From Mytilus trossulus (taxonomy: Eukaryota): DNA of 64,000 nucleotides. The notes under the pieces were generated by a model. That model ran no database searches and had not been told where the DNA came from. It worked only from the letters and a program-made list of their open reading frames with translations. Location of the stretch: NCBI RefSeq assembly GCF_036588685.1, contig NC_086380.1, positions 10,912,001 through 10,976,000 on the forward strand. Direction: 5' to 3'. Each line of letters starts with the position of its first letter. Position 1 is the first letter of the stretch. Below, one piece after another: positions 21,727 to 47,129 of this stretch. The position numbers and the translations under genes were made by a program.

Positions 21727-21728
21727 GA

Positions 21729-21750
21729 CTGAAAATAAAAAAAAACAAAT
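21729..21750 (-). promoter_or_regulatory. Splice acceptor 2 nt upstream of the cGLR ATG
   Basis: The minus strand reads a long pyrimidine tract ending ..tattttcag|tcATG, implying an upstream exon. Confidence 0.75.
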
Positions 21751-22644
21751 GTAAAATATTAAATTTAGTGCAAGTCCACTAAATCTGGATTTACTGTCCC
21801 TTCAATTGAAATGATGAGTATTGAAGTCGGATTTTCTTGTTACATTTCTTGTAACAGTTAGGCCAAAAAGAATATAATAGTATTCTGTTTAAGGTTTACA
21901 ATAGTATCGAAGGAAGGTAGGCAGATCGTTATAATTTTTTCATTCTTTTTGTTGTTGCGAGAGGATAACTGTGGGATGGTTGGACATGTTGTGTAAACTA
22001 CTATGTGACTATATTGGTATATATATATCTTTGTAATACTTGTCAATGAAATCAATTCAGTGTGAACTGACTGGTAATTATCGCTTATGATACGATTTTG
22101 ACACGCCCACATAGATAATGCACATTCATGACTTGATCGACAAGATCAGCACGTGTGCATGGTGTACTATACACTGAGAGTTGTAGATTTGTAGCCTAAA
22201 TCAGGGACTTTTTTATAATAGTTCTATTCTACTTAAGTATATATAGAAAGTCCCTGCGTATATGTATGGACGTAGTTTATCGAATAAAAAAATCAGATAT
22301 TCAGATATATAGTTAACAATTATCATAACATAAAGCCAAGCTAGAAAAACACGGATCTATCAATATATATTAACTTTTTGAATTGAAAAAGTATATTTTT
22401 ACTTTTGACTAACAGGCATATATATAGATATAATAAAAGGATACCAAAACAATTTTATTCTTATACACACGTCCCCAATCGCCATTCCTGAGATTGCAAA
22501 TGATTATAGCCAACCTCGGTTTAGATGTCTGTACCAAAATTTACTTTAAGTCTGGTACGCAGGTTTTATATGTTTTTAAGAAAAAATAAACATTCTAAGG
22601 CTTCCATATAGCTACATTTACATCAACAGTTAAAAATAATAATT

Positions 22645-23520
22645 AAGAAACATCACGAACTCCACTAAGAACCGGGAGTGAAATAAGGTGCTCCAAAAGG
22701 GTAAGCATCGACTGCACCGTATACGTCAGCCGTCGTGTTATTTTTGTATTGTTCAGTTCGGTATTGATGGAATGGTTTATATGACTGAGGAAGAATATCA
22801 GATATGATTTCTGACACACTTTTGTCATAATGACCAATCAGCTCGTGATACCGACCGTAAAATGTCTTCAATGATGAACTTAATTTGATTGGTTCATAGC
22901 CCTGTCTTAGCAACTTTTGAGAAAGCAGTATTCCTAGTTCAACAAAATTAACGTTTGTTGAGCTAGCTTTAGACTAACGTTTTAATTGAAACACATGTAC
23001 TCCATATGCTGGTGCCGCTGGGATGTTGCTGCACAGAAATGGAAAGTTGACTATAGGAAAATTAAAATCTTCACGTTTGTCATAACTTTTGGTATTCAAC
23101 CTACCATCAGTAGTCATTTCGAGAAAAAGGTCAACATATGAAGCAGATTTATCTGTGTCGGTAGTATCTTTAATTTCAAGTTCACTTGGATATGTTAAAT
23201 GTAAGTGATCACTGAACCTATCATTATTAAGAGACAGTACATCACCAATATACCGAAAGGTGAAAAGAAAGTACGAGGCTAGTTTCTTTTCTCCTTTCTG
23301 TACAAGTCTTTGGTAAAATTCTGCTTCATAGCAATATAAACCAAATCTACCAGTAAAGGAGCGCAATTGGTAAATATTGGGTTTCCGATAGTCTATTGGA
23401 AGACCAAGTCTCCAAATTCAACAAATATGTTGTCAATTTAAAAGTCCAGTATGGCAGTGATATCCTCGTCGGTATATTTTTTCCTTGACTCTGTATGATT
23501 TTTCATATTGTTAAATACAA
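22645..23520 (-). mobile_element. Degraded Penelope-like element RT fragment
   Basis: FRYIGDVLSLNN (FRYIDD-type), YPSELEIKDTTD, SASYVDL, YDKREDFNFPIVNFPFLCSNIPAAPAYGV, then LRQGY..KLSSSLKTFYGRYHEL. Frameshifted. Confidence 0.8.
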
Positions 23521-23819: not shown

Positions 23820-24201
23820 AGTCGAAAAATTTAAAGTTTTGTAAACAAGAAATTTATAAAAATGACCACATTATTGATATTCATGTCAACACCGAACTGT
23901 TGACTACTGGGCTGGAGATACCCTCCAAGACGAAACGTCCACCAGCAGTGGCTGCGACCCAGTGGTGTAAATAGTTATCAAAATAGGGTCGCAAGATACC
24001 AAAGGGACAGTCAAACTCATAAATCTAAAATAAACTGACAACGCCATGGCTAAAAAAGAAAAAGACAAACAGAAAACAATAGTACACATGACACAATATC
24101 AAAGGTCAAAGATACCAGGATAATAATTTAGTACGCCAGACACGGTGGCATCGACCCAGTGGTGTAAATAGTTATCAAAAGTACCAGGATAATAATTTAG
24201 T
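23820..24201 (-). mobile_element. Rearranged hammerhead-repeat fragments with a nested non-autonomous repeat (~23985-24097)
   Basis: Matches the reverse complement of ~34075-34270. The ribozyme core is absent (only acgccagac remains). The nested piece matches 60562-60665. Confidence 0.75.
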
Positions 24202-25969
24202 AAATTCTACATCTGTTAAAACCTTACTTAGATCACTTGAAAATCGGTACCATGACACTGGACTTCAACCAAAGTAACTGAATAAGGCGGCCTTGACTTT
24301 CGGTCTTTGCATTTAGTAAGTTTTTAACTAATACATTAGACAATCTTTCAATTTAGTTTCTGTTATTTCTATTGATGCACCATAACCATATGGATCCCAT
24401 TTTGAGAAAGGGATAACAATTTTAGCAATTTCAACGTGATCTCTCTTTGACAGCGTAACATTCTTTTAAAAATTGCTATAACTTGATGAGCCTGTCACTG
24501 TCTTTTTATTTTACTGCGTACTATCTAACCTATAATCAAACACCTATGATAGCTAACAAAAAAGAGGATGAAACAAATCTCTTTCAAATTTCAAAGAACA
24601 AACATTTGGTAATTTTTAATTATGTACATAAATAGTTAATTTGGGAAACCTTGTAACTGTAGATTTGTTTGAACGTTAATCATGTTAATAACACTTTTTT
24701 TTTTATGAAAACCCAGAAGGTTTCATTAACTTACAACGAAATTTATTGCAGAAAGATAGCAGTGTACTGTCCTATAAGTCTTACTGATGATGGACATATA
24801 AGCAATAAATGTACTTATATGCGATAAAACTGGTGGCCAAATGATATCATAATTATACAATTCACAGAACGCTTCGAAAGTCAATAAACCTGTACAATAT
24901 GTCTATTTACTGTTCACTGATATTGATGAATCTTCTAGTTTGTTAATTTAAACATATGTATCAGTCTCAGAAAATTTAATTGTGTTGCTGTTGATAAGGA
25001 TCTTTCCCACTGTCTTTAAGAGACTGCATCTGCTATGCAGTTTGGCTGTCCGTAGATACAGCAAACTTTAAACTGCATACCGTAAAACCAGCTAGACAAC
25101 TTGTTTCTCTTTTGAAGACTTTTAACTCAAAATAGCAACGAAAGAAAAGTTATTTGTGTGAAACATAATTTGTTATTCAATTTAAAGGTTAATATGTATT
25201 TGGCCAAGAGAATGAATAGAAGTTCTAAAAAAGTCATAAATTTCATAATTTCTGTTTTGTGACATTCAACGGGCCAATCAAAATATGCCCAGTGTCCAGA
25301 GAATGATACTCTTCATACAAGTTTGGAATTTCCTGTACTTTAAGTGTACAAATTTATCAGTTTATTTGTCTAAAAGATAGTTTAACAAAATTGACATCTT
25401 CCATTATCTGAATCTAGAAATGTATACCACATATTTATATTCTCTGTCATGCTTATAGTACGGGGCGCCGAACGGGACTTTTTTTGTATTGTACTTGAAA
25501 TTCAATTTTGTACGGACAAAAGTGAGTATATGGCAAACATAGGACATTTTGTGCATTATTGGTTATTTGAAAGACCAATTGTGAAGTCAATCACGTATAT
25601 CCTATAAGTAACATGGGTTTGTTGACATATCAGAAAAGAATAATGTCATATAAGAATAATCACTATAATTGCACAAAATATCATATATTTGACATATACA
25701 TGTAAACTTTTTAAAGATTGCGCATCAACCATATGATATGTCCTTGAATCTGCAAGATCGAGTTTACTACAAACTATGAGAGGCCTTCATACAAAATCGT
25801 GATGGGGAGAAATTCAGTTGCAGATACACTTTTGTTGAGGGTCAATAAAAGTATTTACACTTTGACCAAATGAATATGACAAGTAATGAGTGGAAACCAT
25901 CCATACTTGTTTTAATAGATGTATTGTAGGGACGAAACGTACCCATTCGTGGTTGTCAAAATTTTGCGG

Positions 25970-27400: not shown

Positions 27401-29090
27401 CTAGTCACTTATTTGCTGAAACCCTATACCATCATTTAAAAAATACCAGAAAAGATATACTGAGGAAACGAATCTCCCAGGCCATAACAGACACTATTAT
27501 TTTGTTCCAGTGTTATAACATTTTATTTGACATTTGTTAGATTAAAGAAACGAGTGACCGGTGAAAAATAATGTTCTTCCAATTCTTAAACCAATGCATA
27601 CAAACATCATAAACTTAGTCTTCTGTGCTCGAATTATCATTTTTTTTTCGTGTAAATTTCGTATAATCGTCAAATTTTTTTTCAATCGATCAGTGTTGTT
27701 GTGAAAATATGGCAGGTCATTAAAAGTCGTGTTTAGAAGCCGAAGTTTAACGATTGTCATCTGTTTGTCAACAATTGACGATAAATAAACAAAAAAGCAT
27801 GGAATTTGAGCACGTGTTTAACATGTAAATTCAGATAAAAGTTTATTTTAAGGACATCCATGCGTATTGTGGTCACCGGATTTTTACGAGATAGGTCACA
27901 CTGAGGTCACCTTGCATACGGAAATATATATCGGGGGAATTGCTTGCTGGAAGGAAGCAATTCAAATAAAGTAAACTTCTTATTAATATGAATAAATTAA
28001 AGAATTTTCTTCAGAAAAAAGTATATGTACATAAGTTTTACAATGAAAACTATCCATTGAGTTATAAAAAACAGATGCATTATTTTTTTTTGATTTGAGG
28101 TTTCTTATGACTTTAACATAAAGTACCGGTACTTTATCCCGGCTTCGTAAACGTTAGTATATAAATGAAGTTCAAAATAAACTGTTGTTGAATATTATTT
28201 TTGTATCATTATATTATTACTATAAAGGACTCAACCCTTCAGAAATATTTTTTTTAATATTTATAAATTTGTCAAACTGACTTGCCAGTATTGCCAGTTC
28301 TACTGTTTTTTTACAGGAAATTCCCCTAATACTTTAGCATCAAAACAAGTTCATTTGCTAATTTTTTTGTAATGTACGTGTGTGAAAATAATCTATTGCC
28401 GATGCCAATTTACAATTTTTTTTACATGATATATATTAATATATTGATACTTTGACTTCTACCTATATAAAATGAGCATTTGGTGTTTACCAATTGTCTG
28501 TCTCGATAGGATGTATATAAAGGCCTAGTATGTGATCTATTTTTCTCTGTTCATTATCATAAATAAAATACTAGCAATGATCTTTCTGTATAATCACTTC
28601 AGTACCTTTACTTTTTCTTAACATGCTTATTTTGTCAAATAAATATTTACAGTCTATTACATTTATGCGTCTGTGTCCAACTTTGCCCAAATGCAATATA
28701 TTTGTTTTTCCTCACTTATCAAGATGAACAAACAACATTTACTTACTTACTTTATTTCTGTGTTTGTGTTGAAATCGATGCCATTTAAGTTCTGTACAAT
28801 TTAAATCATTTCTTTTTAAATTGTATCATCATAAATTGTTTAACACCAGTCCAGTAGAGTTTTAACATCCACTCTAATACGACATTTTAAAAAACAGAAT
28901 CGATACTGACACGTTACACCTATGCTTATGATGACGTGTAACCTTTTGATAAAGAGATGCAATAACAACAAATATTTAAACTAATAATGACATACAACGG
29001 GTATTTGTTAAATTCTATATACTGTATTTACATATACAAGATTGTAAATGTTTCAATGCTTTGCTTCAAAATAACCCTCTTTTGTCATAG

Positions 29091-29246
29091 TCTCCGTTTA
29101 ATATATATTGTTGATGATTATAATGAATACAGCAGCTATTTTGTATTGTTTGATTGCGGTGACGACTGCCTCCTCTGATTCATATCTTTTATCAGATAAT
29201 GTTGATGTCGCATGTCTCCTGTAAATCATATCTTTTATCAGATAAA
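29091..29246 (+). other. Candidate exon with a 36-codon signal-peptide-like ORF (29114-29224)
   Basis: Acceptor ctcttttgtcatag and donor aa|gtaagt. ORF MIIMNTAAILYCLIAVTTASSDSYLLSDNVDVACLL*. Also present at 38426-38579 and 45172-45325. Confidence 0.4.
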
Positions 29247-29684
29247 GTAAGTTGCGTGATATTTGTCAGTATTTCTTATTGGAATTTTAAACAAGTCAAG
29301 TCAAGGAATACATTGGAAACCTTCCATGACACAATAAGGCTTGATACATAATCTGTTCACATCATAAAGCCAGCATTTTAAAGGATATTTTCTTTATGGA
29401 ATTAATGCATAATATTTAAAAGAAAGAATCAAAAATGTATAGACATTTTGCAAAAGAATACTTTGTTTATCACAACACACATGAAGTTTACAATGGGAAC
29501 TTTTTGTACTCCCATGGCAATTTCTGTTGAAAATGAACTCTTAATCAGCTGTAGTTACCACAGTGACATTGTGTTCTTTTAATAATTTACCATTGACCAA
29601 AAATATTTTGTTATAAGTCAGTTTTGCCAATTCTGGTATAGCAAATATGGACCGCTTAGTATTTAAATTTGTCACTTAGTCCTA

Positions 29685-30965
29685 CTAAACTATTGCCGGC
29701 CGGCCAAATTAAGAGTTAACTATGTGACCATTAAACCAGAGGTAGAGGTGGGCATTGCCTCTAAAATAGCCTTTCAACCCTATGCCCTATACCCTTACAA
29801 ATTTGTCAGCATAGGGTAGGGGATGGGGGTACCAAGGTATATCACAAAGTCATAATGAACCATTTTTAGTTATTACCGGCTGACCAATCTAAGAGATTCT
29901 CTACGTGGGTCATAACACCAGAGGTAGAGCTATGCATGTCCTTTAAAATATAACATAACATTTATGTTCGAGATCCGCACGAGTTTGCTGGCAGTAAGTG
30001 TGGGGTACCAAATATTTCATATAATTCAACTTTTGCTATTGCTGGCAAAACTAAGAGATTTTGCATGTTGGCCATTATGGGGGTAGAGGTAGCAGTGGCC
30101 TCTATAATTGCCAAGAGTGCGTTTGTCCAAATTTACCATAATAGGGTGTCGGACTGGGGTATCACAAAGTCAAAATTAACTATTGAAGTTGTCCAAACTA
30201 AGAGGTTCTCCATGTGGATCATATTGCCGATGTAATGTAGAAATGGCCTCAAAAATTGACGATGGCACTCTTGCGAGTTATCAGAATGAGGCGGGAGGAG
30301 GGTACACCTGTATATTATAAACCAACTTATTTTCGCAGATACTTTATTTCGCGTTCAGCGATTTCTAACTCTATTCACGGCGATTTCATTTTGCGATTCT
30401 TGAATTAACTGAATATGATAAAAAAAAAAAGTTTTACATATTCTCAACGATTTATCTTCGTGTTATTTTTCTACTCGCGCAGTGTGCTTCAGAACAAGAT
30501 GTAGACATGGCCTCTAAAAGGGTTATCACTTATGCCTTAGACCAGTAAGAGTTTGTCAGTGGAGAGTGTGGGGTGGGATACACCCCGGTAAGTCAAACTT
30601 ATCTGTTGCCGGATGAATAAACTAAGAGATTATCCACGTAGATCATTTTACCAGGGGTAGAGGTTGATATGGCTTATAAAATGGTCTAGAGCACTTATGC
30701 AAAAGACCCTTCTGTAAGCATAGGGTTGGGGTGGGGTATACCAAAGGTAAGTCAAAAATAATTATTGCCGGCTGGACAAACTACTTTTAGTATGAGATTC
30801 TCCACATTAGCCATTATACGTAGAGGTAGAGGTAGGCATCGCCTCTTAAATTGTTTACAACACGTATGCTCTGGGCTCTTACTAGTTTGCTGGTTTTTTT
30901 GGACGGAGGGTATCCAGTATGTCACAAAGTCTAACTTTAATATTGCCGGCTTTCTAAGCTAAGTG
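29685..30965. repeat. Degenerate ~150-180-bp tandem repeat array (~7 units), interrupted at ~30310-30483
   Basis: Recurring aactaagagattctccac..ccattataccagaggtagaggttgacatggcctctaaaat..ggg(t)ggggtac..tcacaaagtc. Also at ~39020-40310 and, more diverged, at ~45700-46465. Confidence 0.8.
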
Positions 30966-32471
30966 ATTTTCTTCACGTGTGCCAAAATATATCAGCAGTA
31001 TAATTCATATAAAACTGAGTTTTCGTAAAATATAAAAATATACCACGGCTATCGAGTTATTGTGCCACCTTATTACTCCCAAAAAATAATATTATTTCTT
31101 GTTTATAGCTTCTGTGTCTAATACTATCGTTCCCTTTTATCATTTATCCGAAATGTTGTTTACAACTGGAACGGTGAACCATGACGGTTAAAATTCACTG
31201 AGGTTGGTATAAGGTTATTTTCGTGCAAAGTGATCGCCGTTTTCACGTGTATTTACTATTCTATTTGACGTTCATTCGTGCAAGACAGATGGCTCGTTCA
31301 ACGTGTTCTGCTTATTTGAGTTGACGTGCATCGTGATTTTTGAATGCCTATTTTGAGTGCTCGGTATTTTTCAAATAAAATTCAAACACATGGCAGGGAT
31401 CGTCAAAAAATACTTTTTTTAAAAGCCGCAAACCATTTATATCATACATGTGTATACTAAATCGGGAATATCAAGTAAAACAGAGAGTTTATATACACAA
31501 AAAGACAGGCACTCAGCCACAAAAGGTTAACATCAAAGTCATTAATTTTCGTGCAACGTTCATAACAGAAATTATTTCACCTTCAAAGCGAAAGCCTGTC
31601 TTATTTTCCGTTTTTCCGTCCAAGCACCTTCCCCCTTTTTCAACCCTTTTTAATGAGTAAAGATCAAAAGATTAGAATTACAAAATGCTAATCTATTAAT
31701 TACCTTAAATTTGATCACACATTCAACATCCACTAGGTGTCACAGTACAATACACATTATATTTACTTCTTTATAAGTTGGAAATGTTTGCTAGACTGAA
31801 GTATAAGGACAGAATACAAGCGTGCATGTTTTAATACACTATCAACTTGAGATCATGTCAGTTATATATTTTTGTTTGAAGTATTTGTCGGAAAAAAACA
31901 AAAATATCATAAATATGTCCTATTGTATGAATTTCTTTCATTACTATAATCATATCAGAAGTCCTTAACACACAAATCCTTCAATTTAAATCTAAAAGTT
32001 GCACGGCTATCACTTTACTTTCTCAATTAGTTTTTGAATTAATTTAATAAATTGTAGCCGTTACCAATGGGGTCTTATTGAGGGTTTCCGATCCTGGATC
32101 GCGCATAATGTTTTGTCAGATTCCCGTATTCCGCTTACACTTTGTACATAAGCAATTATCATTTTCTTGGTTATTTCCCGGGTCCCCTAGACCTCATTTC
32201 TTGTTTTCACGACACAATGATTTGACTTTCACGTGTCAAGCTTACATAAAATCGGCAACTCACGTCACGCTTAGACCCCAATGAGATCCACTACCAAGCG
32301 GAAAACGAGATTTATTTTTAATTCTATTTTAGTAAATAAATGATTTAACATTTTAAGAAAGCAAACTGAAGTTAAATATGAAAGTTATGATGAAATTTGA
32401 CTTGACAATTATTTGCTGGTTAATAGCTACACCAAAAGTCGTCGATGCGCTTAAAATCGCCTTATTAGATG

Positions 32472-32605
32472 GTTTAATTTATAAATATGACCATATCAAT
32501 GATAATTCATGTCAGCACAGAAGTGTGACTACTGGGCTGGTAATATCCTCGGGGAATCAAAACTCCACCAGCAGTGGCATCGACCCAATGATGGAAAAAA
32601 CTCAT
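32472..32605 (-). mobile_element. Internal fragment of the hammerhead repeat (subfamily 2), no ribozyme
   Basis: Reverse complement of ~48365-48485; duplicated at ~41835-41965. Confidence 0.7.
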
Positions 32606-33245
32606 ACATTTTCTAAATGTTACCAGAAAAGATGTTCTAAACATGCTAAAGGAACGAACCTCCTAGGCGATTTCAGACATTAAAATTGATATTTTTTTTA
32701 ATTTGTTCTTTTTAAATATTTAATTATCTTTTTTGAATTCTTCATTTGTTAGATATATACTAGTCAACAAGAAACGATACGCGACTTTGGAATAACATTT
32801 CGCAAAAAGTATGAAATAAAAACCGAAATGAAATGCACTTTTTTGAAAAGCTCATTTGCAATGTATGCACATATGATAATGAAACCAAAACCTGTCGGGA
32901 AGTTACTAAATTCCATGTAAACTTTACTTTTGCGGATAGTTGGACACACAATTTTTCAAGTACTAAATAAATATTCAAATTTGTTGAAAATATTAAATAT
33001 GCTTATCGAGTTATGTTCATGTGTAACTTAAGGGTTGAAATATTGTTTTTTTAATTTTTTTTGGTTAAAAATATTTTTTGAAATCTCCAAAAATGCAAAA
33101 CTTAAAAAAAAACTGTTTTCGCCTTAAATCATTGCCGAAGATATGAAAACAACACACTGTAAATTTGAAACCTTTCAGATAAGTTTTAAGAATGTGACCA
33201 TTTTTTTTATTTCACTTAATACATACCCTCTATGGTAAATCGTTA

Positions 33246-33605
33246 AATGAATGGCTATTATTTATTTTGATTTTATTGAACCATAAAACTAATTTTTGAC
33301 TCTTCACATTGAATAATCCGCGAAGCTGATTATGTGAAATATGATGTCAAAAATTAGTTTTATGGTTCAATAAAATCAAAATAAATCATTGCCATTCATT
33401 ATAAATAAATTTCTATCAAAAATAAGGCTCAAAGAACTTTTTATATTATTTATATTAACAATAACAAGCGTACACACATGTTGGCGTATGAATACTCAAC
33501 GTCAGAGTGGGCGTGTCGCCATCAAAATTGACAACATTGAAAATAAAACTAATAATTTTAACCAATCAGAAGACAGTAAAAACACCAAATTTATTTATTT
33601 GATAA
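33246..33605. mobile_element. Palindrome-containing non-autonomous element
   Basis: Perfect 41-bp inverted arms at 33260-33300 / 33346-33386, plus outer 10-bp arms at 33246-33255 / 33391-33400, around a central GCGAAGC. Second copy at ~42617-42975. Confidence 0.7.
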
Positions 33606-34050
33606 TGTATACATTTTAACGATATCTCGTTGGGCCGAACTTTGCTTTACAAATAAACGAAGAAACGCTTTAATCTTGAAAAAAGAATTGACGGCAAACA
33701 TTGTCTTTATCTTAAATTAAGAGGTTGGAATCATTAGTTGAAACTTGTTTTTAAAATTGTCGTTTTATGTAAATTTTGTAAAAAAATAGAATTTCGCCAA
33801 ATGACAGCAAAAATTATTATTTAAGGTGGATCCCTACAGATATAGCAATGTTTTATTCACCATTGAAATTTCTAAAAATTTGCATATATATATACTATGC
33901 AATGGACTCTATAAAAAATTGAGTTAAAAATAGTATGTCACCAGACTCCTTTCCATGGTAACGGTCACCAAAGTTGGAACATCACGTATATGCATAAATA
34001 CATACCTGATGTGGAAACTGTTTTTTTAAGCCTTTGAAAGTATTTTGAAA

Positions 34051-34480
34051 GATGAGTCTTATGTAGACGAAATGTGCGTCTGGCGTATTAAATTATAATC
34101 CTGGTACCTTTAATAACTATTTACACCACTGGGTCGATGCCACTGCTGGTGGACGTTTCGTCCCCGAGGGTATAACCAGCCCAGTAGTCAGCACTTCGGT
34201 GTTGACATGAATATCAATTATATGGTCATTTTTATAAATTTTCTGTTTACAAAACTTTGAATTTTTCGAAAAAACTAAGGATTTTCTTACGCCCAGGAGT
34301 AGATAACCTTAGCCGTATTTGGCACAACTTTTTTGGAATTTTTGGGTCCTCAATGCTCTTCAACTTTGTATTTGTTTGGCTTTTTAACTGTTTTGATCTG
34401 AGCGTCACTGATGAGTCTTATGTAGACGAAACGCGCGTCTGGCGTATTAAATTATAATCCTGGTACCTTTGATAACTATT
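34051..34480 (+). mobile_element. Non-LTR retrozyme-like insertion: 1.2 units of a 359-nt hammerhead repeat
   Basis: 34051-34121 repeats at 34410-34480. Absent from the paralogous site at ~43424. Possible short AAAG target duplication. Confidence 0.9.
34402..34445 (+). ncRNA. Minimal type I hammerhead ribozyme (intact core)
   Basis: gcgtca-CTGATGA-gtct tatgt agac-GAAA-cgcgcg-TC-tggcgt: 6-bp stem I, 4-bp stem II, palindromic stem III. Predicted cleavage after GUC at 34439. Confidence 0.9.
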
Positions 34481-34829
34481 AAAAGGTCTGTCCTTCATTT
34501 CTTACAAAATTATTTTGTAAAATGTAAATAAAACACAAATAATGGCATTGTCATTTATGTTTATTAATTCGGCTCCAATTTCAATGCCACCTTCAATATT
34601 GGTCCTATAAACGGAAAACTGCATCTTAAATTTGATTTTGTTGACAAGTATACATAAAAGTACTGGTACCTTATCCCGGCTTCGTAAACATTAGTATATA
34701 AATGTATATTCTTCAGATTAAAGTGTTGTTGAATGATAAGTTTATGCATTTTTATTTTATTACTACAAAAGACTCAATCCTTAAGAAATGTTTTTTTTTT
34801 ATATTTGGAAATTTGTAAACCTGACTTAA

Positions 34830-35421
34830 GGTGGTATGGGTGTCTTTCGCCATCTTGAATTGTAAAAAACAGAGAATCTAAGGTCCATATTTTCTATCAA
34901 GTTAGCCAAATTTGATGCAGGAATGCAGAAATTTAATTTGAATTTGAATTTAAAAGAACCAATTTATAAGAATATAACTTAGAAATATTAATATTTTTAC
35001 AATTGTAGATTAATTTTGGTTGTTTTTGAATATTTTCAAATTGGCATTGTAAGGGGAGGTAACTCTATAACAGTGCATTTTCTGAAGAACTCTACATGAA
35101 ATTTTCCTATTTTGTCTTTTAGCCAGAAAAAACGTACGGTGACCCTACCTTTTCTTTTAATATTCTCAAAGCATTGTCTGAAAGCAATCTTTTCCTAATT
35201 TATTTTACAATTCTATCATTTTTTTTAGTTTCTTTTCACAAAATGGTGTTTTTTCCTGTATAATCCATACAAAATTTGTCAAATTGTCATAACCTGTAGC
35301 TTGAAAAAATGCACGGTGACCTATCATTTTTATAATATTTTTGATCATGTATTAATAGATACTACATTTTGACAAAGTATGAAAAAATTCTATCATTTTT
35401 ATTTTAGACTCCCATACCACC
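34830..35421. mobile_element. Kolobok-like MITE (GG termini, TTAA target)
   Basis: TIRs ggtggtatgggtgtct / agactcccataccacc; flanks TTAA..TTAG here and TTAA..TTAA in the paralogue. Empty sites with a single TTAA at 47807-47810 and 49647-49650. Confidence 0.85.
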
Positions 35422-35787
35422 TTAGGGAGTATAACCAGTTCTATCTTTTCTTAATGTGTTATTTTACAGTTTTATTTGAGGCAATTTTTACAAGAAATCC
35501 CCCTAATACTTTAGCATCAAATCAAGTTCATTTGCTTTTTTTTGGTAATGTTCGTTTGTGTAAGACAATGTTTTGACGATGCCAATTCACATTTTTTTTA
35601 CATGATATTTATTAATATATTGATACTTTGACTTCTACCTATATAAAATTAGCATTTGGTGTTTACCAATTGTCTGTCTCGATAGGATGTATATAAAGGC
35701 CTAGCATGTGATCTATTTTTCTCTGTTCATTATCATAAATAAAATACTAGCAATGATCTTTTTGTATAATCACTTCAATACCTTTAC

Positions 35788-37706
35788 TTTTTTTTTTTTT
35801 TTTTTTTTAATTTTTATTATTTTCAAGATTTACAACAAATATACAACACATCAAACATACATACAGTAATATTAGCGATACATTTGAATATATATTTATT
35901 TATGACAATAAACATTGTTGTAAATTCATTTTTTCTATTTATATGAGAAAAAAAAGAAGTAAGAAAATACAGAAGAAAAATATAATTAGAGTTAAATGTT
36001 CATGTACCACTGTGTGGCACTTGAGAATTGTAAAAAAAAAAAAAAAAAAAATTTTTATAAAAAATAAAAAAAAATATCCTGTAAGATTTTCAGTACATAA
36101 TAAATTGTGCTATTAGATACAATAATATTTTATGTTAGTTTTGACAATAAATATAGATTGTAAAAACAAATGACAAATTGAATTATAAAAATAATACTTT
36201 AAATGCATTCCACATGGTATCAAAGTGTTTTTGTCTCTTATTTTTGACTGCCATTATTTTTTCTAAATTGTACATATATTTTAACTTTTCTTTAATGGCA
36301 CTGACTGAAAGATCTTTTGAAAAACATCTATTGTTGTATATATATTGTTTCATGTATAGAAAAATCAAATTATATGGGTCACCTTTTCTAACTTTTGTTA
36401 CATCTCCAAAAATAAAATTCAACTTATTCAATGGCAGGCTTACCCCACCAGATAAAAACCAATAATCTACATCTTGTAAAAAATTTTGGATAATCTCACA
36501 ATTCCACAGAATATGTTCAATGGTTTCATCTTCTAATTTACAAAAAGTACATAGAGGGTTATCAATAAGTTTGATTTTACATAAAAATTTATTTGTGGCA
36601 AGAATTCTATGGTTGATCCTGTACTGAAGCCACTGTAGTTTAGTATTGACAGTGACTGTAAAAGGTAGTTTGAATATATGTTTCCAAATGAGATCTTCAC
36701 CTAATATTTCACTCCACTTCAGTTGTCCTGTTGGAGTCACTTTATTACTTATGAGTATTTTGTACATATCTTTAGTACCTTTTCTACTTTTGAAAAAGAC
36801 TTGTAAGCAAGCTGGAATAAATGGACAACATAACTTATATGAACCTTTTTTGTAATTATTTGCTGCTTTTTTAATAGCAGAAATAACACTCATGTAATTC
36901 AAAAAATTTACATTTACATCATAACATTGTTGTAACAATTCTAATGAAATAAAACATCCATTTTCATCTATTACATCATTAACATATTGTAAACCATGAT
37001 TAAACCAATGTTGATAAAAAACAGGTTTATTACCAATTCTGATCCTATTGTTAAACCAAAGAGGACTTGATAAAAAATATTCATAGTCCATATTTCTTTC
37101 TTTATCAGTAATCATTTCCCATGCTCTGAATACATCTTTCCAAAAACTATTTTTGATATATAAACTAGCTTGTTTGATATACTGAACACCACAATTAAAA
37201 AGTTTATTTTTATCAATATCTGACATCAATATACTTTGCCACTTATTATCTCCCTGAAAAATCCTTCTTATCCATGATGATTTTAGTGCCATGGTAAAAC
37301 TATAAATATCTATCATTTTTAATCCTCCCTCCAAATATTCTTTAATCAATACGTCCTTCTTCACTCTATGAATAGGAGAATTCCATACAAACGAATAGAA
37401 AATGTCATTAATTTTTTGGAATACACTGTTTGTAGGATTAGGCAAAGAAATAATAAGGTGGTTTAAAATAGGTAAAACAAGAGTTTTTATCACAGTTATT
37501 CTTCCTATTACTGTAAGGTTTCTTTTCGACCATTGTTTTATTATGTTCTTAATCTGTATGATTTTATCATTATAGTTGATGTTGACAATATTGTCTAAGT
37601 CCACATCAAAATTTATCCCAAGTAGTTTAAAAGTTGTCTCCCCCCATGACAGGTTAACGTCAGGACATAAAATTTCCTTGCTATACTTTTTACTTCCAAA
37701 CCAAAT
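35788..37706 (-). mobile_element. 5'-truncated L1/Tx1-clade LINE with poly(A) tail; ORF2 C-terminal part open (37706-36183)
   Basis: IWFGSKK, FKLLGINF, LTVIGRITVIKTLVLP, GGLKMID, and the zf-RVT/CCHC motif CTFCKLEDETIEHILWNC. A 21-T run lies at 35788-35808. Confidence 0.92.
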
Positions 37707-38425
37707 CTATTGCCGATGCCAATTTACAATTTTTTTTACATGATATATATTAATTATATATATATATATATTGATACTTTGACTTCTACCTATATAAAAT
37801 GAGCATTTGGTGTTTACCAATTGTCTGTCTCGATAGGATGTATATAAAGGCCTAGTATGTGATCTATTTTTCTCTGTTCATTATCATAAATAAAATACTA
37901 GCAATGATGTTTTTGTATAATCACTTCAGTACCTTTACTTTTTCTTAACATGCTTATTTTGTCAAATAAATATTTACAGTCTATTACATTTATGCGTCTG
38001 TGTCCAACTTTGCCCAAATGCCCAAATGCAATATATTTGTTTTTCCTCACTTATCAAGATGAACAAACAACATCTACTTACTTGCTTTATTTCTGTGTTT
38101 GTGTTGAAATCGATGCCATTTAAGTTCTGTACAATTTAAATCATTTTTTTTTAAATTGTATCATCATAATTTGTTTAACACCAGTCCAGTAGATTTTTAA
38201 CATCCACTCTAATTAGACATTTTAAAAAACAGAATCGATACTGAAACGTTACACCTATGCTTATGATGACGTGTAACCTTTTGATAAAGAGATGCAATAA
38301 CAACAAATATTTAAACTAATAATGACATACAACGGGTATTTGTTAAATTCTATATACTGTATTTACATATACAAAATTGTAATTGTTTCAATGCTTTGCT
38401 TCAAAATAACCCTCTTTTGTCATAG

Positions 38426-38579
38426 TCTCCGTTTAATATATTGGTGATGATTATAATGAATACAGCAGCTGTTTTGTATTGTTTGATTGCGGTGACGACT
38501 GCCTCCTCTGATTCATATCTTTTATCAGATAATGTTGATGTCGCGTGTCTCCCGTAAATCATATCTTTTATCAGATAAA
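38426..38579 (+). other. Candidate exon, copy 2 (ORF 38447-38557)
   Basis: Same splice signals and 36-codon ORF as 29091-29246, with two amino-acid changes. Confidence 0.4.
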
Positions 38580-41500
38580 GTAAGTTGCGTGATATTTGTC
38601 AGTATTTCTTATTGGAATTTTAAACAAGTCAAGTCAAGGAATACATTGGAAACCTTCCATGACACAATAAGGCTTAATACATAATCTGTTCACATCATAC
38701 AGCCAGTATTTTAAAGGATATTTTCTTTATGGAATTAATGCATAATATTTAAAAGAAAGAATCAAAAATGTATAGACATTTTGCAAAAGAATACTTTGTT
38801 TATCACAACACACATGAAGTTTACCATGGGAACTTTTTGTACTCCCATGGCAATTTCTATTGAAAATGAACTCTTAAGCAGCTGTAGTTACCACAGTGAC
38901 ATTGTGTTCTTTTAATAATTTACCATTGTCCAAAAATATTTTGTTATAAGTCAGTTTTGCCAATTCTGGTATAGCAAATATGGACCGCCTAGTATTTAAA
39001 TTTGTCACATAGTCCTACTAAACTATTGCCGGCCGGCCAAATTAAGAGTTAACTATGTGACCATTAAACCAGAGGTAGAGGTGGGCATTGCCTCTAAAAT
39101 AGCCTTTCAACCCTATGCCCTATACCCTTACAAATTTGTCAGCATAGGGTAGGGGATGGGGGTACCAAGGTATATCACAAAGTCATAATGAACCATTTTA
39201 GTTATTGCCGGCTGACCAATCTAAGAGATTCTCTACGTGGGTCATAACACCAGAGGTAGAGCTATGCATGTCCTTTAAAATATAACATAACATTTATGTT
39301 CGAGATCCGCACGAGTTTGCTGGCAGTAAGTGTGGGGTACCAAATATTTCATATAATTCAACTTTTGCTATTGCTGGCAAAACTAAGAGATTTTGCATGT
39401 TGGCCATTATGGGGGTAGAGGTAGCAGTGGCCTCTATAATTGCCAAGAGTGCGTTTGTCCAAATTTACCATAATAGGGTGTCGGACTGGGGTATCACAAA
39501 GTCAAAATTAACTATTGAAGTTGTCCAAACTAAGAGGTTCTCCATGTCGATCATATTGCCGATGTAATGTAGAAATGGCCTTAAAAAATTGACGATGGCA
39601 CTCTTGCGAGTTATCAGAATGAGGCGGGAGGAGGGTACACCTGTATATTATAAACCAACTTATTTTCGCAGATACTTTATTTCGCGTTCAGCCATTTCTA
39701 ACTCTATTCACGGCGATTTCATTTTGCGATTCTTGAATTAACTGAATATGATAAAATAAAAAAGTTTTACATATTCGCAACGATTTATCTTCGTGTTATT
39801 TTTCTACTCGCGCAGTGGCAAAAATAAAATTGCTTCAGAACAAGATGTAGACATGGCCTCTAAAAGGGTTATCACTTATGCCTTAGACCAGTAAGAGTTT
39901 GTCAATGTAGAGTGTGGGGTTGGATACACCCCGGTAAGTCAAACTTATCTGTTGCCGGATGAATAAACTAAGAGATTATCCACGTAGATCATTATACCAG
40001 GGGTAGAGGTTGATATGGCTTATAAAATGGTCTAGAGCACTTATGCAAAAGATCCTTCTGTAAGCATAGGGTTGGGGTGGGGTATACCAAAGGTAAGTCA
40101 AAAATAATTATTGCTGGCTGGATAAACTACTTTTAGTATGAGATTCTCCACATTAGCCATTATACGTAGAGATAGAGGTAGGCATCGCCTCTTAAATTGT
40201 TTACAACACGTATGCTCTGGGCTCTTACTAGTTTGCTGGTTTTTTTTGGACGGAGGGTATCCAGTATGTCACAAAGTCTAACTTTAATATTGCCGGCTTT
40301 CTAAGCTAAGTGATTTTCTTCACGTGTGCCAAAACATATCAGCAGTATAATTCATATAAAACTGAGTTTTCGTAAAATATAAAAATATACCACGGCTATC
40401 GAGTTATTGTGCCACCTTATTAGTCCCAAAAAATAATATTATTTCTTGTTTATAGCTTCTGTGTCTAATACTATCGTTCCCTTTTATCATTTATCCGAAA
40501 TGTTGTTTACAACTGGAACGGTGAACCATGACGGTTAAAATTCACTGAGGTTGGTATAAGGTTATTTTCGTGCAAAGTGATCGCCGTTTTTTATTTCACG
40601 TTTCACGTGTATTTACTATTCTATTTGACGTTCATTCGTGCAAGACAGATGGCTCGTTCAACGTGTTCTCATTATTTGAGTTTACGTGCATCGTGATTTT
40701 TGAATGCCTATTTTGAGTACTCGGTATTTTTCAAATAAAATTCAAACACTTGGCAGGGATCGTCAAAAAATACTTTTTTAAAAGCCGCAAATCATTTACA
40801 TCATACATGTGTATACTAAATCGGGAATATCAAGTAAAACAGAGAGTTTATATACACAAAAAGACAGGCACTCAGCCACAAAAGGTTAACATCAAAGTCA
40901 TTAATTTTCGTGCAACGTTCATAACAGAAATTATTTCACCTTCAGGGCGAAAGCCTGTCTTATTTTACGTTTTTCCGTTCAAGCACCTTCCCCCTTTTTC
41001 AACCCTTTTTAATGAGTAAAGATCAAAAGATTAGAATTACAAAATGCTAATCTATTATTTACCTTAAATTTGATCACACATTCAACATCCACTAGGTGTC
41101 ACAGTACAATACACATTATATTTACTTCTTTATAAGTTGGAAATGTTTGCTAGACTGAAGTATAAGGACAGAATACAAGCGTGCATGTTTTAATACACTA
41201 TCAACTTGTGATCATGTCAGTTATATATTTTTGTTTGAAGTATTTGTCGGAAAAAAACTAAAAAAGTCATAAATATGTCCTATTGTATGAATTTCTTTCA
41301 TTACTATAATCATATCAGAAGTCCTTAACACACAAATCCTTCAATTTAAATCTAAAAGTTGCACGGCTATCACTTTACTTTCTCAATTAGTTTTTGAATT
41401 AATTTAATAAATTGTAGCCGTTACCAATGGGGTCTTATCGAGGGTTTCCGATCCTGGATCGCGCATAATGTTTTGTCAGATTCCCGTATTCCGCTTACAC

Positions 41501-43770
41501 TTTGTACATAAGCAATTATCATTTTCTTGGTTATTTCCCGGGTCCCCTATACCTCATTTCTTGTTTTCACGACACAATGATTTGACTTTCACGTGTCAAG
41601 CTTACAAACAATCGGCAATATCACGTCACGCTTAGACCCCAATGAGATCCACTACCAAGCGGAAAACGAGATTTATTTTTAATTCTATTTTTAGTAAATA
41701 AATGATTTCACATTTTAGAAAGCAAACTGAAGTTAAATATGAAAGTTTTGATGAAATTTGACTTGACAATTATTTGCTGGTTAATAGCTACACCAAAAGT
41801 CGTCGATGCGCTTAAAATCGCCTTATTTATAGATGGTTTAATTTATAAATATGACCATATCAATGATAATTCATGTCAGCACAGAAGTGTGACTACTGGG
41901 CTGGTAATATCCTCGGGGAATCAAAACTCCACCAGCAGTGGCATCGACCCAATGATGGAAAAAACTCATACATTTTCTAAATGTTACCAGAAAAGATGTT
42001 CTAAACATGCTAAAGGAACGAACCTCCTAGGCGATTTCAGACATTAAAATTGATATTTTTTTTAATTTGTTCTTTTTAAATGTTTAATTATCTTTTTTGA
42101 ATTCTTCATTTGTTAGATATATACTAGTCAACAAGAAACGATACGCGACTTTGGAATAACATTTCGCAAAAAGTATGAAATAAAAACCGAAATGAAATGC
42201 ACTTTTTTGAAAAGCTCATTTGCAATGTATGCACATATGATAATGAAACCAAAACCTGTCGGGAAGTTACTAAATTCCATGTAAACTTTACTTTTGCGGA
42301 TAGTTGGACACACAATTTTTCAAGTACTAAATAAATATTCAAATTTGTTGAAAATATTAAATATGCTTATCGAGTTATGTTCATGTGTAACTTAAGGGTT
42401 GAAATATTGTTTTTTTTAAATTTTTTTTGGTTAAAAATATTTTTTGAAATCTCCAAAAATGCAAAAAATTTAAAAAAAAACTGTTTTCGCCTTAAATCAT
42501 TGCCGAAGATACGAAAACAACACACTGTAAGTTTGAAACCTTTCAGATAAGTTTTAAGAATGGGACCAGTTTTTTTTTTATTTCACTTAATACCTACCCT
42601 CTATGGTAAATCATTTAATGAATGGCTATTATTTATTTTGATTGTATTGAAACATAAAACTAATTTTTGACTCTTCACATTGAATAATCCGCGAAGCGGA
42701 TTATGTAAAATATGATGTCAAAAATTAGTTTTATGGTTCAATAAAATCAAAATAAATCATTGCCATTCATTATAAATAAATTTCTATCAAAAATAAGGCT
42801 CAAAGAACTTTTTATATTATTTATATTAACAATAACAAGCGTACACACTTGTTGGCGTATGAATACTCAACGTCAGAGTGGGAGTGTCGCCATCAAAATT
42901 GACAACATTGAAAATAAAACTAATAATTTTAACCAATCAGAAGACAGTAAAAACACCAAATTTATTTATTTGATAATGTATACATTTTAACGATATCTCG
43001 TTGGGCCGAACTTTGCTTTACAAATAAACGAAGAAACGCTTTAATCTTGAAAAAAAGAATTGACGGCAAACATTGTCTTTATCTTAAATTAAGAGGTTGG
43101 AATCATTAGTTGAAACTTGTTTTTAAAATTGTCGTTTTATGTAAATTTTGTAAAAAAATAGAATTTCGCCAAATGACAGCAAAAAATATCATTTAAGGTG
43201 GATCCCTACAGATATAGCAATGTTTTATTCACCATTGAAATTTCTAAAAATTTGCATATATATATACTATGCACTGGCCTCAATAAAAATTTGAGTTGAA
43301 AATAGTATGTCACCAGACTCCTTTCCATGGTAACGGTCACCAAAGTTGGAACATCACGTGTATGCATAAATACATACTTGATGTGGAAACTCTGTTTTTT
43401 TTTAGCCTTTGAAAGTATTTTGAATGGCCTGTCCTTCATTTCTTACAAAATTATTTTGTAAAATGTAAATAAAACACAAATAATGGCATTTTCATTCATG
43501 TTTATTAATTTAGGCTCCAATTTCAATGCCACCTTCAATATTGGTCCTATAAACGGAAAACTGCATCTTAAATTTGATTTTGTTGACTAGTATACATAAA
43601 AGTACTGGTACCTTATCCCTGCTTCGTAAACATTAGTATATAAATGTATATTCTTCAGATTAAAGTGTTGTTGAATGATAAGTTTCTGCATTTTTATTTT
43701 ATTACTACAAAAGACTCAATCCTTAAGAAATGTTTTTTTTTATATTTGGAAATTTGTAAACCTGACTTAA

Positions 43771-44356
43771 GGTGGTATGGGTGTCTTTCGCCATCTTGAA
43801 TTGTAAAAAACAGAGAATCTAAGGTCCATATTTTCTATCAAGTTAGCAAAATATGATGCAGGAATGCAGAAATTTAATTTGAATTTGAATTTAAAAGAAC
43901 TAATTTATAAGAATATAATATTAATATTTTTACAATTGTAGATTAATTTTGGTTGTTTTTGAATATTTTCAAATTGGCATTGTAAGGGGAGGTAACTCTA
44001 TAACAGTGCATTTTCTGAAGGACTCTACATGAAATTTTCCTATTTTGTCTTTTAGCCAGAAAAAACGTACGGTGACCCTACCTTTTCTTTTGATATTCTC
44101 AAAGCATTGTCTGAAAGCAATCTTTTCCTAATTTATTTTACAATTCTATCATTTTTTTTAGTTTCTATTCACAAAATGGTGTTTTTTCCTGGATAATCCA
44201 TACAAAATTTGTCAAATTGTCACACAACCTGTAGCTTGAGAAAATGCACGGTGACCTATCATTTTTATAATATTTTTGATCATGTATTAACAGATACTAC
44301 ATTTTGACAAGGTATGAACAAATTCTATCATTTTTATTTTAGACTCCCATACCACC
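43771..44356. mobile_element. Kolobok-like MITE, paralogue of 34830-35421
   Basis: Same TIRs; TTAA at 43767-43770 and 44357-44360. Confidence 0.85.
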
Positions 44357-45171
44357 TTAAGGAGTATAACCAGTTCTACCTTTTCTTAATGTGTTATTTT
44401 ACAGTTTTATTTGAGGCAATTTTTACAAGAAATCCCCCTAATACTTTAGCATCAAATCAAGTTCATTTGCTTTTTTTTGTAATGTTCGTTAGTGTAAGAC
44501 AATGTTTTGACGATGCCAATTTACAATTTTTTTACATGATATATATTAATATATTGATACTTTGACTTCTACCTATATGAAATTAGCATTTGGTGTTTAC
44601 CAATTGTCTGTCTCGATAGGATGTATATAAAGGCCTAGTATGTGATCTATTTTTCTCTGTTCATTATCATAAATAAAATACTAGCAATGATCTTTCTGTA
44701 TAATCACTTCAGTACCTTTACTTTTTCTTAACATGCTTATTTTGTCAAATAAATATTTACAATCTATGACATTTATGCGTCTGTGTCAAACTTTGTCCAA
44801 CTAACATAATATTTGTGTTTCCTCACTTATTAAGATGAACAAACAATATCTACTTACTTACTTTATTTCTGTGTCTGTGTTGAAATCGATGCCAATTAAA
44901 TTTTGTACAATTGTATCATTATAAGTTGTTTAACACCAGTCCAGTAAATTTTTAACATCCACTCTAATTAGACATTTAAAAAAAACTAGATAGAAAACAC
45001 CTATGCTTAGGTTGACATGTAACCTTTTGATAAAGAGATGCAATAACAACAAATATTTAAACTAATAATAACATACAACGGGTATTTGTTAAATTCTATA
45101 TACTGTATTTACATATACTAAATTGTAATTGGCTCAATGCTTTGCTTCAAAATAACCCTCTTTTGTCATAG

Positions 45172-45325: not shown

Positions 45326-47129
45326 GTAAGTTGCGTGATATTTGTCAGTATTTCTTATTGGAATTTTAAACAAGTCAAGTCAAAGAAAATATTTGAAATC
45401 CTTCCATGAAACAATAATGCCTTACATATAATCTGGTCTCCTCGTAAAGCCAGCATTTTTAAAAAAAAATATTTTCTTGATGGAACTAATAAATAATTAT
45501 TAAAAGAAAGAGTAAAAATGTACAGACACGCGAGCTTTAAATTTTCCAATGGGAAATGTTTGTACTCTCATTGCAATTTCTATGGAAAATTAACAGTTAA
45601 TCAGCTGTAGATACCACAGTGACATTTGTTTTTATCAATAATCCATCAATTTCCCAAATATATTTTGTTATTTTGTGAAACAGTTTTGCCGATTCTGGTA
45701 ATCATAGGGTTGCGGAGTAGGGGTCCCATTATATCAAAACGTCAAACTTAATTATTTGAACGAACTTAGAGATTCTCCATATAGGCCATTATAGCAGAGG
45801 CAAAAGTTTGCATGACTTCTAAAATAGCATAAAGCATTTAGGCCTGAGACCCGTACACATTTGTCAGAATAGGTTGTCGGATTGTTGTATCCTGGTATAT
45901 CACACATTCAAAATTTACTATTGCAAGCTGTTGAAACGAAGAGGGTCTCCAAGTGGGTCATTTTGCCAGAGGAAGAAGTTGACATGGCCTCTCATATGGC
46001 CGATAGCACTCATGTCGTAGACCCTTACGAGTTGTCAGAATAAGGAGAGGAGGCGGGTACTCCGGTATATCACAAAGTTTAGATTTATTATTGTCAGCTG
46101 GACAAAGTAAGTAATTTTCCATGTGGCCATAACAACAGATTTAGATGTAGTCATGGCCTCTAAAATGGTCTGTATCAGTTTCGCCTTATACCAGAAAGAA
46201 TTGGTTGTGGCAGGGGAGTTACAAGGAGATATTACAACGTCAAAACCAACTTTTACCGGCTGGCCAAACTAAGAAATTCTCAACGTAGACCATTATGCCA
46301 GGGGTAGAGGTTGACATGGCCTCTATAATGGTCTACATCACTTATGCCAGGGAGCCGTACGAGTTAGTCAGCATAGGGTTGGGGAGGGGGATAACCCGGT
46401 TTATCATGAAGTCAAAAATAATTACCTATTATGTCACAAAGTCAAACTATAACGATGTAGGCTGTCTAAATAGAGGAAGTGATGGGTCAATATTCCTTGT
46501 ATGCCTGAAATTCTGGCATGTGTGAATGTGTAAAACTATGGAGTTAACTAAATTTTCAAAAAAAAATTTATGTGGAAAAAGGGATTTTATTACCCCGAGG
46601 AGACGCTTATTAACGGAAAATGAATATTACTTCGTCCCCAGGAATTTTAACCAAATATGTGAAAATGTTAAACCTTGGAAACGAGCCATCATACATATCC
46701 ATGTTTACGATATGACTAAAGAAATCTGGTAAAAAAGCTACCATTACCGCCTGCATGTGCCCATTTTATAAGCTTTATTTTAGAGGTTGTCATACTGATT
46801 TTTGCATGACTGCATCTTCTACAACAGGAACAATGTGAAAGGGAAAGTAGTTCTCTTTTATAGATACCTAGTTATCACAGCTGGTTCTAGATTAATATTA
46901 TTTGTGAAGATCAGCAATAACTTTCGCTTTTCAAATGTATTACTGGCATACGGCTGGATCACTTCTAATAGGCGCAACCAGAACGTTTGTATAGATCAGA
47001 GGCTGAAAGGCGCATGTCATAGCTTTTTATGGATTAATTCAACATTGTTTAATTGTAATTTAACATGACACACTAAAGACATTGTTATACTACAATGATT
47101 CATGTCTACCCATGCTATAGGGATGTTAC

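Follow-up and report, generated by a model that had tools for sequence, protein, structure and literature searches.

A young hammerhead-repeat insertion in the mussel Mytilus trossulus, likely written in by a Naiad enzyme through a shared stem-loop

INTRODUCTION

Which enzyme moves animal retrozymes, and what does it recognise in their RNA? Both points are left open in the accessible text of PMC7229834, PMC7761336 and a July 2026 preprint. They are raised here by a 430-nt insertion in Mytilus trossulus, at positions 34051-34480 of a stretch of 64,000 nucleotides (NC_086380.1, 10,912,001 to 10,976,000, forward strand; hereafter the window, numbered from its first base). A sequence-only reading had taken this segment for a recently inserted hammerhead-type retroelement of the retrozyme kind, which our analysis supports, and had remarked that the class is already described in Mytilus, in agreement with PMC7229834. 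There, the non-LTR retrozyme of Mytilus galloprovincialis (Cervera and de la Pena 2020) is reported as 350-390-bp repeats giving abundant circles. The element examined here is a member of this known class and, judging by size and features, probably belongs to the published Mytilus family. By itself the insertion is ordinary, one among tens of thousands. We asked how it was made.

RESULTS

Anatomy of the insertion

The insert extends from G34051 to T34480. It amounts to about 1.2 times a hammerhead repeat of 357-359 nt, with 30 nt in front of a full unit of 359 nt and a 41-nt tail behind it. Its parts and borders, all on the + strand, are as follows.

34048..34050 (+): left copy of the target duplication, AAA; G34051 can be assigned to target or element
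34051..34480 (+): whole insertion, 430 nt, 5′-truncated with a fixed 3′ end (sequence and paralog alignment)
34051..34086 (+): truncated first hammerhead, cut site after C34080; no Rfam match
34081..34439 (+): one repeat unit of 359 nt, the predicted monomer or circle; family RNA ends map to 34081
34128..34185 (+): Naiad-type stem-loop, likely the signal for reverse transcriptase binding and start; found likewise at the 5′ terminus of Naiads
34402..34445 (+): complete type I hammerhead, cut after C34439 (fold and Rfam match)
34431-34438 (+): palindrome ACGCGCGU within the complete hammerhead
34440..34480 (+): 41-nt tail past the cut, stopping at the fixed 3′ end of the family
34481..34485 (+): a single additional A followed by the right-hand target duplication, AAA[G] (sequence and host-repeat alignment)

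The two GUC sites end at 34080 and 34439, exactly where they had been placed, 359 nt apart. This spacing holds, but the picture of a 359-nt unit bounded by two hammerheads does not: the element is a 5′-truncated concatemer whose 3′ end lies 41 nt past the cut. The tail 34440-34480 stops 6-7 nt short of where the next stem-loop would start. The unit is 98.6% identical to those of the nearest arrays.

The hammerhead motifs

The second hammerhead is formed by stem I (34402-34407/34440-34445), CUGAUGA (34408-34414), a 4-bp stem II, GAAA and a stem III of 2 bp with a GCGC loop. It thus carries the CUGANGA and GAAA core, the NUH site and stems I-III of a type I hammerhead, with stem I open. The Rfam model Hammerhead_1 (RF00163) aligned over 45 of 45 positions with 33.0 bits (E 1.9e-6), so that the proposed Infernal check gave a full-length match by E-value. 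This score lies one bit below the curated cut-off of 34 bits, which explains why a scan of the whole window at the gathering threshold returned 0 matches. The likeness to RF00163 covers the full length at 34402-34445, but the model covers the ribozyme alone. The earlier description of a complete minimal type I hammerhead is correct as to completeness and type, while ‘minimal’ is a loose word for a motif whose stem II is full and whose stem III has 2 bp.

As had been noticed, the first hammerhead is 5′-truncated and carries two C-to-T changes: its core starts without CU, its stem I has no 5′ strand, and the changes lie at 34073 and 34075. Through this truncation it lacks the features of a type I hammerhead. 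Both changes affect CpG sites, and about 95% of family reads (RNA run X21) have C at 34073/34075. A third difference, G>A at 34112, had been overlooked. In read-through RNA of this copy, the catalytic strand of the second motif is predicted to pair with the first cut site (-9.6 kcal/mol).

The palindromic stem III had been read as implying dimeric cleavage. Folding computation indeed favours a dimer at this stem (-13.3 vs +1.7 kcal/mol for the monomer), yet a published mussel repeat is cleaved from one cloned repeat at ~0.1/min (PMC7229834); dimeric cleavage is possible but need not be obligatory. The hammerhead differs from the minimum-energy fold, and folding z-scores (hammerhead region 0.77, unit -0.60) did not stand out. 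We also considered a minus-strand hammerhead (CUGGUGA...GAAACGUC within 34130-34180) and rejected it: it gave no hammerhead fold, the RNA is mostly + strand, and GAAAC is not conserved in Naiad or sister families.

The insertion site

The insertion splits a dispersed repeat that lies within a tandem segmental duplication, the second copy of which provides the corresponding site.

33820..34583 (no strand assigned): host dispersed repeat, unclassified, split by the insertion (genome search)
28390..35795 (no strand assigned): segmental duplication copy 1; copy 2, in tandem, is 37704-44729
43423..43425 (+): empty counterpart of the site in copy 2, AAT; its T is private to that copy

Over the stretch upstream of the site (a 5726-column alignment), the duplicated copies show 88 substitutions and 97.2% identity, gaps included. 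Just two copies of the locus were seen in a genome search, and the 7.4-kb duplication may be genuine or may represent two haplotypes joined in assembly.

Alignment to 43423-43425 shows the paralogous position without the insert, as had been claimed for all 430 bp at about 43424. The alternative named at the time as refuting, loss of the segment from copy 2 by deletion, is ruled out by the host-repeat family (at least 41 matches, from 40 scored of 370 candidates): the site is uninterrupted in 9 of 9 other aligned copies, all reading TTTTGAAAGG, hence an insertion and not a deletion. The target duplication is of 3-4 nt (AAA or AAAG) plus one extra A. Because the junction of the paralog bears a private A>T, the filled/empty pair alone would hide this duplication. 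The expectation that such a pair would be directly informative on mechanism was therefore not borne out, as a single pair says little and mis-calls the target duplication; what could be learnt of the mechanism derives from the family ends and the Naiad-type stem-loop. No match to the empty allele was found among the joints listed for two contig sets.

The retrozyme family: abundance, arrays and RNA

A search of its own genome with the unit gave 3814 first-look candidates, the 40 of them that were scored containing 181 matches. Forty 10-kb stretches sampled at round coordinates contained 27 family matches, distributed over 15 of them and occupying 1.5% of bases. Extrapolation (27 per 400 kb) leads to a genome total of roughly 90,000 fragments, older subfamilies included. 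Arrays reach 23-25 units, and the hammerhead core is intact in 89 of 96 array units. Divergence between units is 0.3-1.7% inside an array and 2.1-3.3% from one array to another. The tandem units of 357-369 nt (one of 352), each with one type I hammerhead, low in GC and non-coding, correspond to metazoan non-LTR retrozymes, for which a unit of 150-450 bp is taken. Two arrays, L030:1097-2703 and the end of L124, are of an alternating ABAB type, with units of 357/364 nt and 366/356 nt. The ABAB arrays fit a dimeric template or local duplication, and together with the homogeneous arrays they are also compatible with multimer templates or local duplication.

Two other classes were examined and set aside. 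Plant LTR retrozymes have type III hammerheads in their LTRs, PBS/PPT and a 4-bp target duplication, whereas the motif here is type I; the 70-nt terminal repeat is a partial unit and not an LTR, since 5′ ends are ragged. SINEs of the L1/CR1 type have poly(A) or a simple repeat as their 3′ tail and are flanked by long target duplications; the insertion has no tail, and a junction repeat of at least 6 nt was present in 1 of 27 insertions (control 1.6%).

The family is transcribed: in RNA run X21, depth was about 1000 on the element and less than 5 on its flanks, with a strand excess of about 5:1 in favour of the + strand by the usual stranded convention. In the same run, 106 family RNA molecules end at 34081, the first base after GUC, at a depth of 431; with a threshold of one fifth of depth, this was the sole pile-up of RNA ends listed in X21. 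Run X24 showed neither strand bias nor pile-up, and the pile-up was thus seen in 1 of 2 RNA runs. As 91 of 5187 reads are at least 99% alike to the 34051-34480 copy, these reads speak for the family, and it is at the family level that they support in vivo cleavage at GUC.

Copies share a fixed 3′ end

We compared the termini of 30 loci. Five were left out as duplicates and another 5 fell within long arrays; the 20 that showed a 3′ end all had it at +39..+48 after the cut, with 5′ ends spread round the unit. In loci chosen independently of the element, 12 of 22 young copies had their 3′ end at +36..+48, where 0.8 would be expected (p 2e-12); the remaining 10 matches end elsewhere, several of them being fragments or other families that share the motif alone. 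Anchored ends lay at +37..+45 in 27 of 27 scored insertions, a set partly chosen for ending there (27 of 30 insertions scored, 3 dropped for want of an anchor). Similarly, hundreds of contig loose ends with unrelated flanks pile up at 34479-34482 in two runs.

Across the 27 scored insertions no long target duplication was found, the mean best repeat being 3.7 nt vs 3.0 nt in controls; target duplications in the family are mostly of 5 nt or less, or absent. The 3′ flank showed no added AT-richness (69% vs 68%). A fixed 3′ end combined with ragged 5′ ends of dispersed copies is the mark of target-primed reverse transcription.

A covarying stem-loop shared with Naiad elements

Just behind the position of the fixed 3′ end lies a 58-nt covarying stem-loop (34128-34185) that the sequence-only reading had overlooked. 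It consists of P1 (34128-34134/34179-34185), P2 and an inner hairpin; in a circular fold of the unit, pair probabilities of P1 and P2 are 0.85-1.0. The 34051-34480 copy has a private C>A within it, at 34174. Compared with Naiad family C, 55 of 63 nt are identical (E 3e-19), and Naiad family A carries a 21-nt insertion within the structure.

Among 12 diverse sequences, 91.6% of cells were paired over 22 pairs, of which 7 changed on both sides; 0 of 500 shuffles reached the covariation score and slid controls were 38-55% paired. In 28 model-fitted sequences, 88.9% were paired. These counts come from related sequences from which the structure itself was derived, so that they are inflated by kinship and do not represent a probability. 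The compensatory changes nevertheless argue for a role of the stem-loop at the RNA level.

By an exact-word search in the PMC8557442 supplement, the stem-loop opens 12 of the 54 Naiad consensuses given there. The animals concerned are oysters, an ark clam, mussels, two acorn worms and a fish, with one further entry from a bivalve; the exact words were unmatched in the other 42 consensuses. Its core (CUGCUGGUGGA, UCCCCGAG) is conserved across phyla and matches no Rfam family. Full-length matches to the model were also obtained in 16 of 80 metagenome loci, including Naiads and ~340-nt repeats; the animal-derived repeats of this size combine a hammerhead of another kind with this motif and this end rule. 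The other 64 loci gave no full-length match and look like chance.

Naiad and retrozyme families end at the same place

Three families of Naiad, a clade of Penelope-like elements (PLEs), were found in the genome, and each unit starts with the stem-loop. Naiad A has a 1056-aa frame whose start resembles the published Naiad_Mgal protein, Naiad B a 927-aa frame, and Naiad C (L325) a 1000-aa frame in a 3370-bp unit, 55% identical to A. Many copies of Naiad C are 99-100% identical (155 residues searched). Its frame has an N-terminal GIY motif at 135 and YIDD at 844 of 1000 aa; Pfam matches are weak (GIY-YIG E 0.034, RVT_1 E 2e-4), those of families A and B being above cut-off. Diagnostic Naiad features are present: the CX2-5CxxC finger, the CxC motif, DKA replacing DKG and no canonical hammerhead. 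The stem-loop lies upstream of the ATG in 29 of 30 Naiad C loci, at a distance of 75 nt.

Termini were then expressed relative to P1. Naiad A ends 2-7 nt before P1 in all 13 copies that show the end (in a further 3 loci the edge of the locus came first), Naiad B 1-6 nt before it (9/9) and Naiad C 2-6 nt before it in 15 of 16 copies, the last one being at -1 through alignment overrun. The retrozyme family of 34051-34480 ends 2-10 nt before P1 (median 6), and retrozyme families B (9/9) and C (5/5), read by eye, 2-8 nt before it. The distance from cut to P1 is 48 nt here and 52-55 and 40 nt in the sister families. Thus all three Naiad and all three retrozyme families end a few bases before the stem-loop, whatever the hammerhead or tail. 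The retrozyme shares the terminal signal and the 3′-end rule of Naiad, as is asked of a non-autonomous partner.

A same-strand retrozyme was present within 40 nt of the Naiad 3′ end in 5 of 73 cases (4 of 72 without one retrozyme-chosen locus), against 7 of 2000 (edges, p 1e-4) or 25 of 2000 (any start, p 0.013) in the random control. Such junctions fit template switching or homing by one enzyme. Part of the Naiad B 3′ UTR is a decayed retrozyme-like piece with a 66-72% match. We rejected it as a shared terminus: its position ~650 nt before the Naiad end and its decayed core make it better read as an old captured copy. Naiad A variants contain a 29-nt retrozyme tail fragment, and from these cases (L111:3468-4016, L112-L118 and L120) Naiad UTRs seem to collect pieces of passengers.

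PLEs with a C-terminal GIY domain (L126, L149-L151, L171, L172) end at (TA)n runs downstream of the ORF and carry hammerhead-like cores, with first bases altered, seen by eye. The repeats of these families, among which L171 is the sole full-length one, had neither the stem-loop nor similarity to the retrozyme.

DISCUSSION

A model of insertion and its alternatives

The segment 34051-34480 is a young 5′-truncated insertion of a hammerhead repeat whose RNA is cut at GUC. We consider it likely that it was written in by a Naiad reverse transcriptase-endonuclease, which is predicted to recognise the shared stem-loop and to copy from just upstream of it. Transcripts of the + strand would end at the hammerhead site, where the ends of family reads are found. 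Monomers would then be ligated into circles, as published for M. galloprovincialis repeats of similar size; reads across the junction are expected from a tandem transcript as well as from a circle. By analogy with the Anolis PLE, the Naiad protein would nick target DNA and bind the stem-loop, priming about 2-10 nt 5′ of P1 in a U/A-rich stretch, where element ends are observed. Reverse transcription would cover the 41 nt back to the cut/ligation point, then a complete unit and a further 30 nt, and repair would leave the 3-4-nt duplication observed here. Since copying crosses the cut point twice, a linear monomer that has been cut cannot serve as template; it must have been circular or a multimer left uncut. 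The best candidate partner would be the young 3370-bp Naiad family of L325, on account of its closest motif identity and its intact frames.

The nature of the template is where the nearest alternative diverges. The same Naiad machinery could use an uncut linear multimer transcribed from tandem arrays, circles being a by-product and the hammerhead dispensable for insertion; this differs from the above in the copying step alone, and we hold it to be a serious if less probable reading. It retains this weight because the Anolis PLE does not need hammerhead cleavage: in vitro, its insertion is unaffected by hammerhead mutants and its main substrate is unprocessed RNA (PMC11167929). Naiads, too, spread without canonical hammerheads (PMC8557442), and template arrays of 23-25 units as well as the ABAB arrays of L030 and L124 are at hand. 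What speaks for the circle is the core kept intact in 89 of 96 array units, the family RNA ends that pile up at the cut site in X21, and the mostly circular state of published mussel RNA (PMC7229834). Events purely at the DNA level, that is satellite amplification, gene conversion or deletion from copy 2, would leave long homogeneous arrays, and the site does lie within a tandem duplication; they may extend arrays after insertion. As the origin of dispersed copies, spread without reverse transcription is largely refuted by the fixed 3′ and ragged 5′ ends and by the host repeat unbroken at the site in 9 of 9 copies, and we regard it as scarcely credible.

Other explanations concern the function of the stem-loop. 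It could serve expression, as a promoter, a translation signal or the like, and descend from a Naiad ancestor, the 3′ ends being set by something else such as the hammerhead, the tail or another reverse transcriptase. The structure lies 75 nt upstream of the Naiad ATG, where internal promoters of PLEs sit (PMC8557442), and the Naiad B 3′ UTR, with a 72% match to most of the remaining unit, would fit Naiad descent. But the distance from end to stem-loop is constant in six families with differing tails and hammerhead distances, and is the same in Naiad C, where no hammerhead core occurs between the ORFs; together with compensatory changes suggestive of an RNA-level role, this makes an expression signal improbable as the whole explanation, though a second role as promoter may exist. 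More unlikely still is a novel self-cleaving ribozyme that would cut a few bases upstream of P1 and so provide the RNA 3′ end for the start of reverse transcription. HDV-like ribozymes cut at the 5′ end of some retrotransposons (PMC7761336), and a stem-loop placed at the unit border in a clade that has no canonical hammerheads, its core (CUGCUGGUGGA, UCCCCGAG) kept across phyla and unmatched in Rfam, could be taken for one. However, the listed RNA-end pile-up is at 34081 alone, with none near 34121, element ends spread over about 9 nt (+37..+45), and the circles reported in mussel (PMC7229834) would not survive another active ribozyme.

Beyond this locus, we are evenly divided on a wider proposal: that the Naiad stem-loop, conserved from mussels and oysters to acorn worms and a fish, tells the telomerase-related reverse transcriptase where to start, that it was captured several times by different hammerhead circles, and that any small circle with these 58 nt would be written in by rolling-circle target-primed reverse transcription. 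On this proposal retrozymes would be modular, with one ribozyme making the circle and one portable structure for copying.

Relation to known systems

The M. galloprovincialis retrozyme resembles the present family in its type I hammerhead, repeat size, low GC, dispersed and tandem copies and expression (PMC7229834). The two accounts differ in the number of copies (about 5000 hammerheads there, ~90,000 fragments extrapolated here), in target duplications, which when present are >4 bp there and mostly 5 nt or less here, and in the number of mussel hammerhead families, two in the 2020 paper and a third, with a CUGAAGA core, seen here. This third repeat family (L036, L079, L119) has the stem-loop about 40 nt past the cut. 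PLEs were proposed as retrozyme partners in 2020, but in the accessible text of PMC7229834 they are named merely as likely ones, and neither a fixed 3′ end nor a stem-loop or Naiad link appears there.

Like the retrozyme, the Naiad clade (Craig et al. 2021, PMC8557442) shows 5′ truncation, partial tandems, no long target duplication and a fixed 3′ end, and Naiad consensuses of that work carry the same 5′-terminal motif; the retrozyme differs in that it encodes nothing and has a canonical hammerhead. Non-autonomous partners are described for Chlamys in the same paper. A word search of its main text (stem, hairpin, secondary structure, UTR) revealed no mention of a 5′ structure. The Naiad C protein and the retrozyme hammerhead words were unmatched in its supplement, where text broken in long runs makes for a weak search.

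The July 2026 preprint likewise argues that retrozymes depend on PLEs, from co-occurrence and homology to Xenopus pLTRs. In its accessible text it is vertebrate-centred, Naiads being just a clade detected in coral, and its authors leave the mechanism open; Mytilus, mussel, mollusc, tail, RNA structure and start site go unmentioned there. The closest precedent for the start is the Poseidon element PAc of Anolis carolinensis (Frangieh et al. 2024, PMC11167929), for which reverse transcription starts internally at a stem-loop downstream of the hammerhead. PAc also needs RNA 3′ of the start, and its starts match genomic 3′ ends. In contrast, it belongs to another PLE clade (C-terminal GIY-YIG) and begins copying 85-92 nt past the cut, at an AC-rich stem-loop that is part of the ORF. 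Our literature search, which covered sources other than subscription journals and Repbase/Dfam, found no report of the Naiad link or the stem-loop. The general link to PLEs is thus already argued, and the Naiad partner and signal were found in no paper searched.

The case is useful in several respects. It offers a candidate enzyme with intact, near-identical copies in the same genome and a start predicted to within a few bases; the 58-nt structure provides natural compensatory variants, and the shared structure and end rule make the question directly testable. It also separates the hammerhead from the mobilisation signal: a common possession of hammerheads is not the link here, because the partner clade has no canonical ones. 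If the model is true, about 1.5% of the mussel genome would be explained, and the stem-loop would offer a short, transferable tag by which circular RNA could be inserted into DNA.

Other features of the window

Further copies of the retrozyme family lie on the - strand at 3261-3440, 23822-23982, 24106-24203 and 50834-51220. The copy at 23822-23982 directly abuts a Naiad C 3′ end, and the end of the one at 50834-51220 is not at the usual site. A second retrozyme family, ~77% alike with the same hammerhead core and stem-loop, is represented at 48087-48516 and 49927-50356 (+). Its copies sit in a 1840-bp tandem duplication (46897-50579) that is 100% identical and, for this reason, very recent or an assembly artefact. 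A stem-loop fragment without upstream hammerhead occurs at 32476-32610 and 41840-41974 (-); its presence in both duplicated copies indicates that it predates the duplication.

A decayed Naiad reverse transcriptase fragment lies at 22665-23417 (-), one of 27,259 first-look candidates in the genome; considered as a neighbour of the insertion, it was discarded as old and not joined to 34051-34480. LINE-type reverse transcriptase fragments (zf-RVT, RVT_1) were found at 4382-6151 (+), 8352-9071 (+), 17738-19300 (-) and 36183-37706 (-), the last separating the two duplicated blocks. Diverged repeats of ~170 nt occupy 29700-30900, 39050-40250 and 45780-46420 in duplicated blocks; the one frame translated was not open. 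The broken frames at 61203-62329 (+), without Pfam match, resemble a Polinton-type DNA polymerase B. Finally, 19417-21801 (-) holds an uninterrupted 794-aa frame with a Mab-21_C match (E 1.5e-12) and weak Mab-21 nucleotidyltransferase matches, which we take to be a cGAS-like receptor gene.
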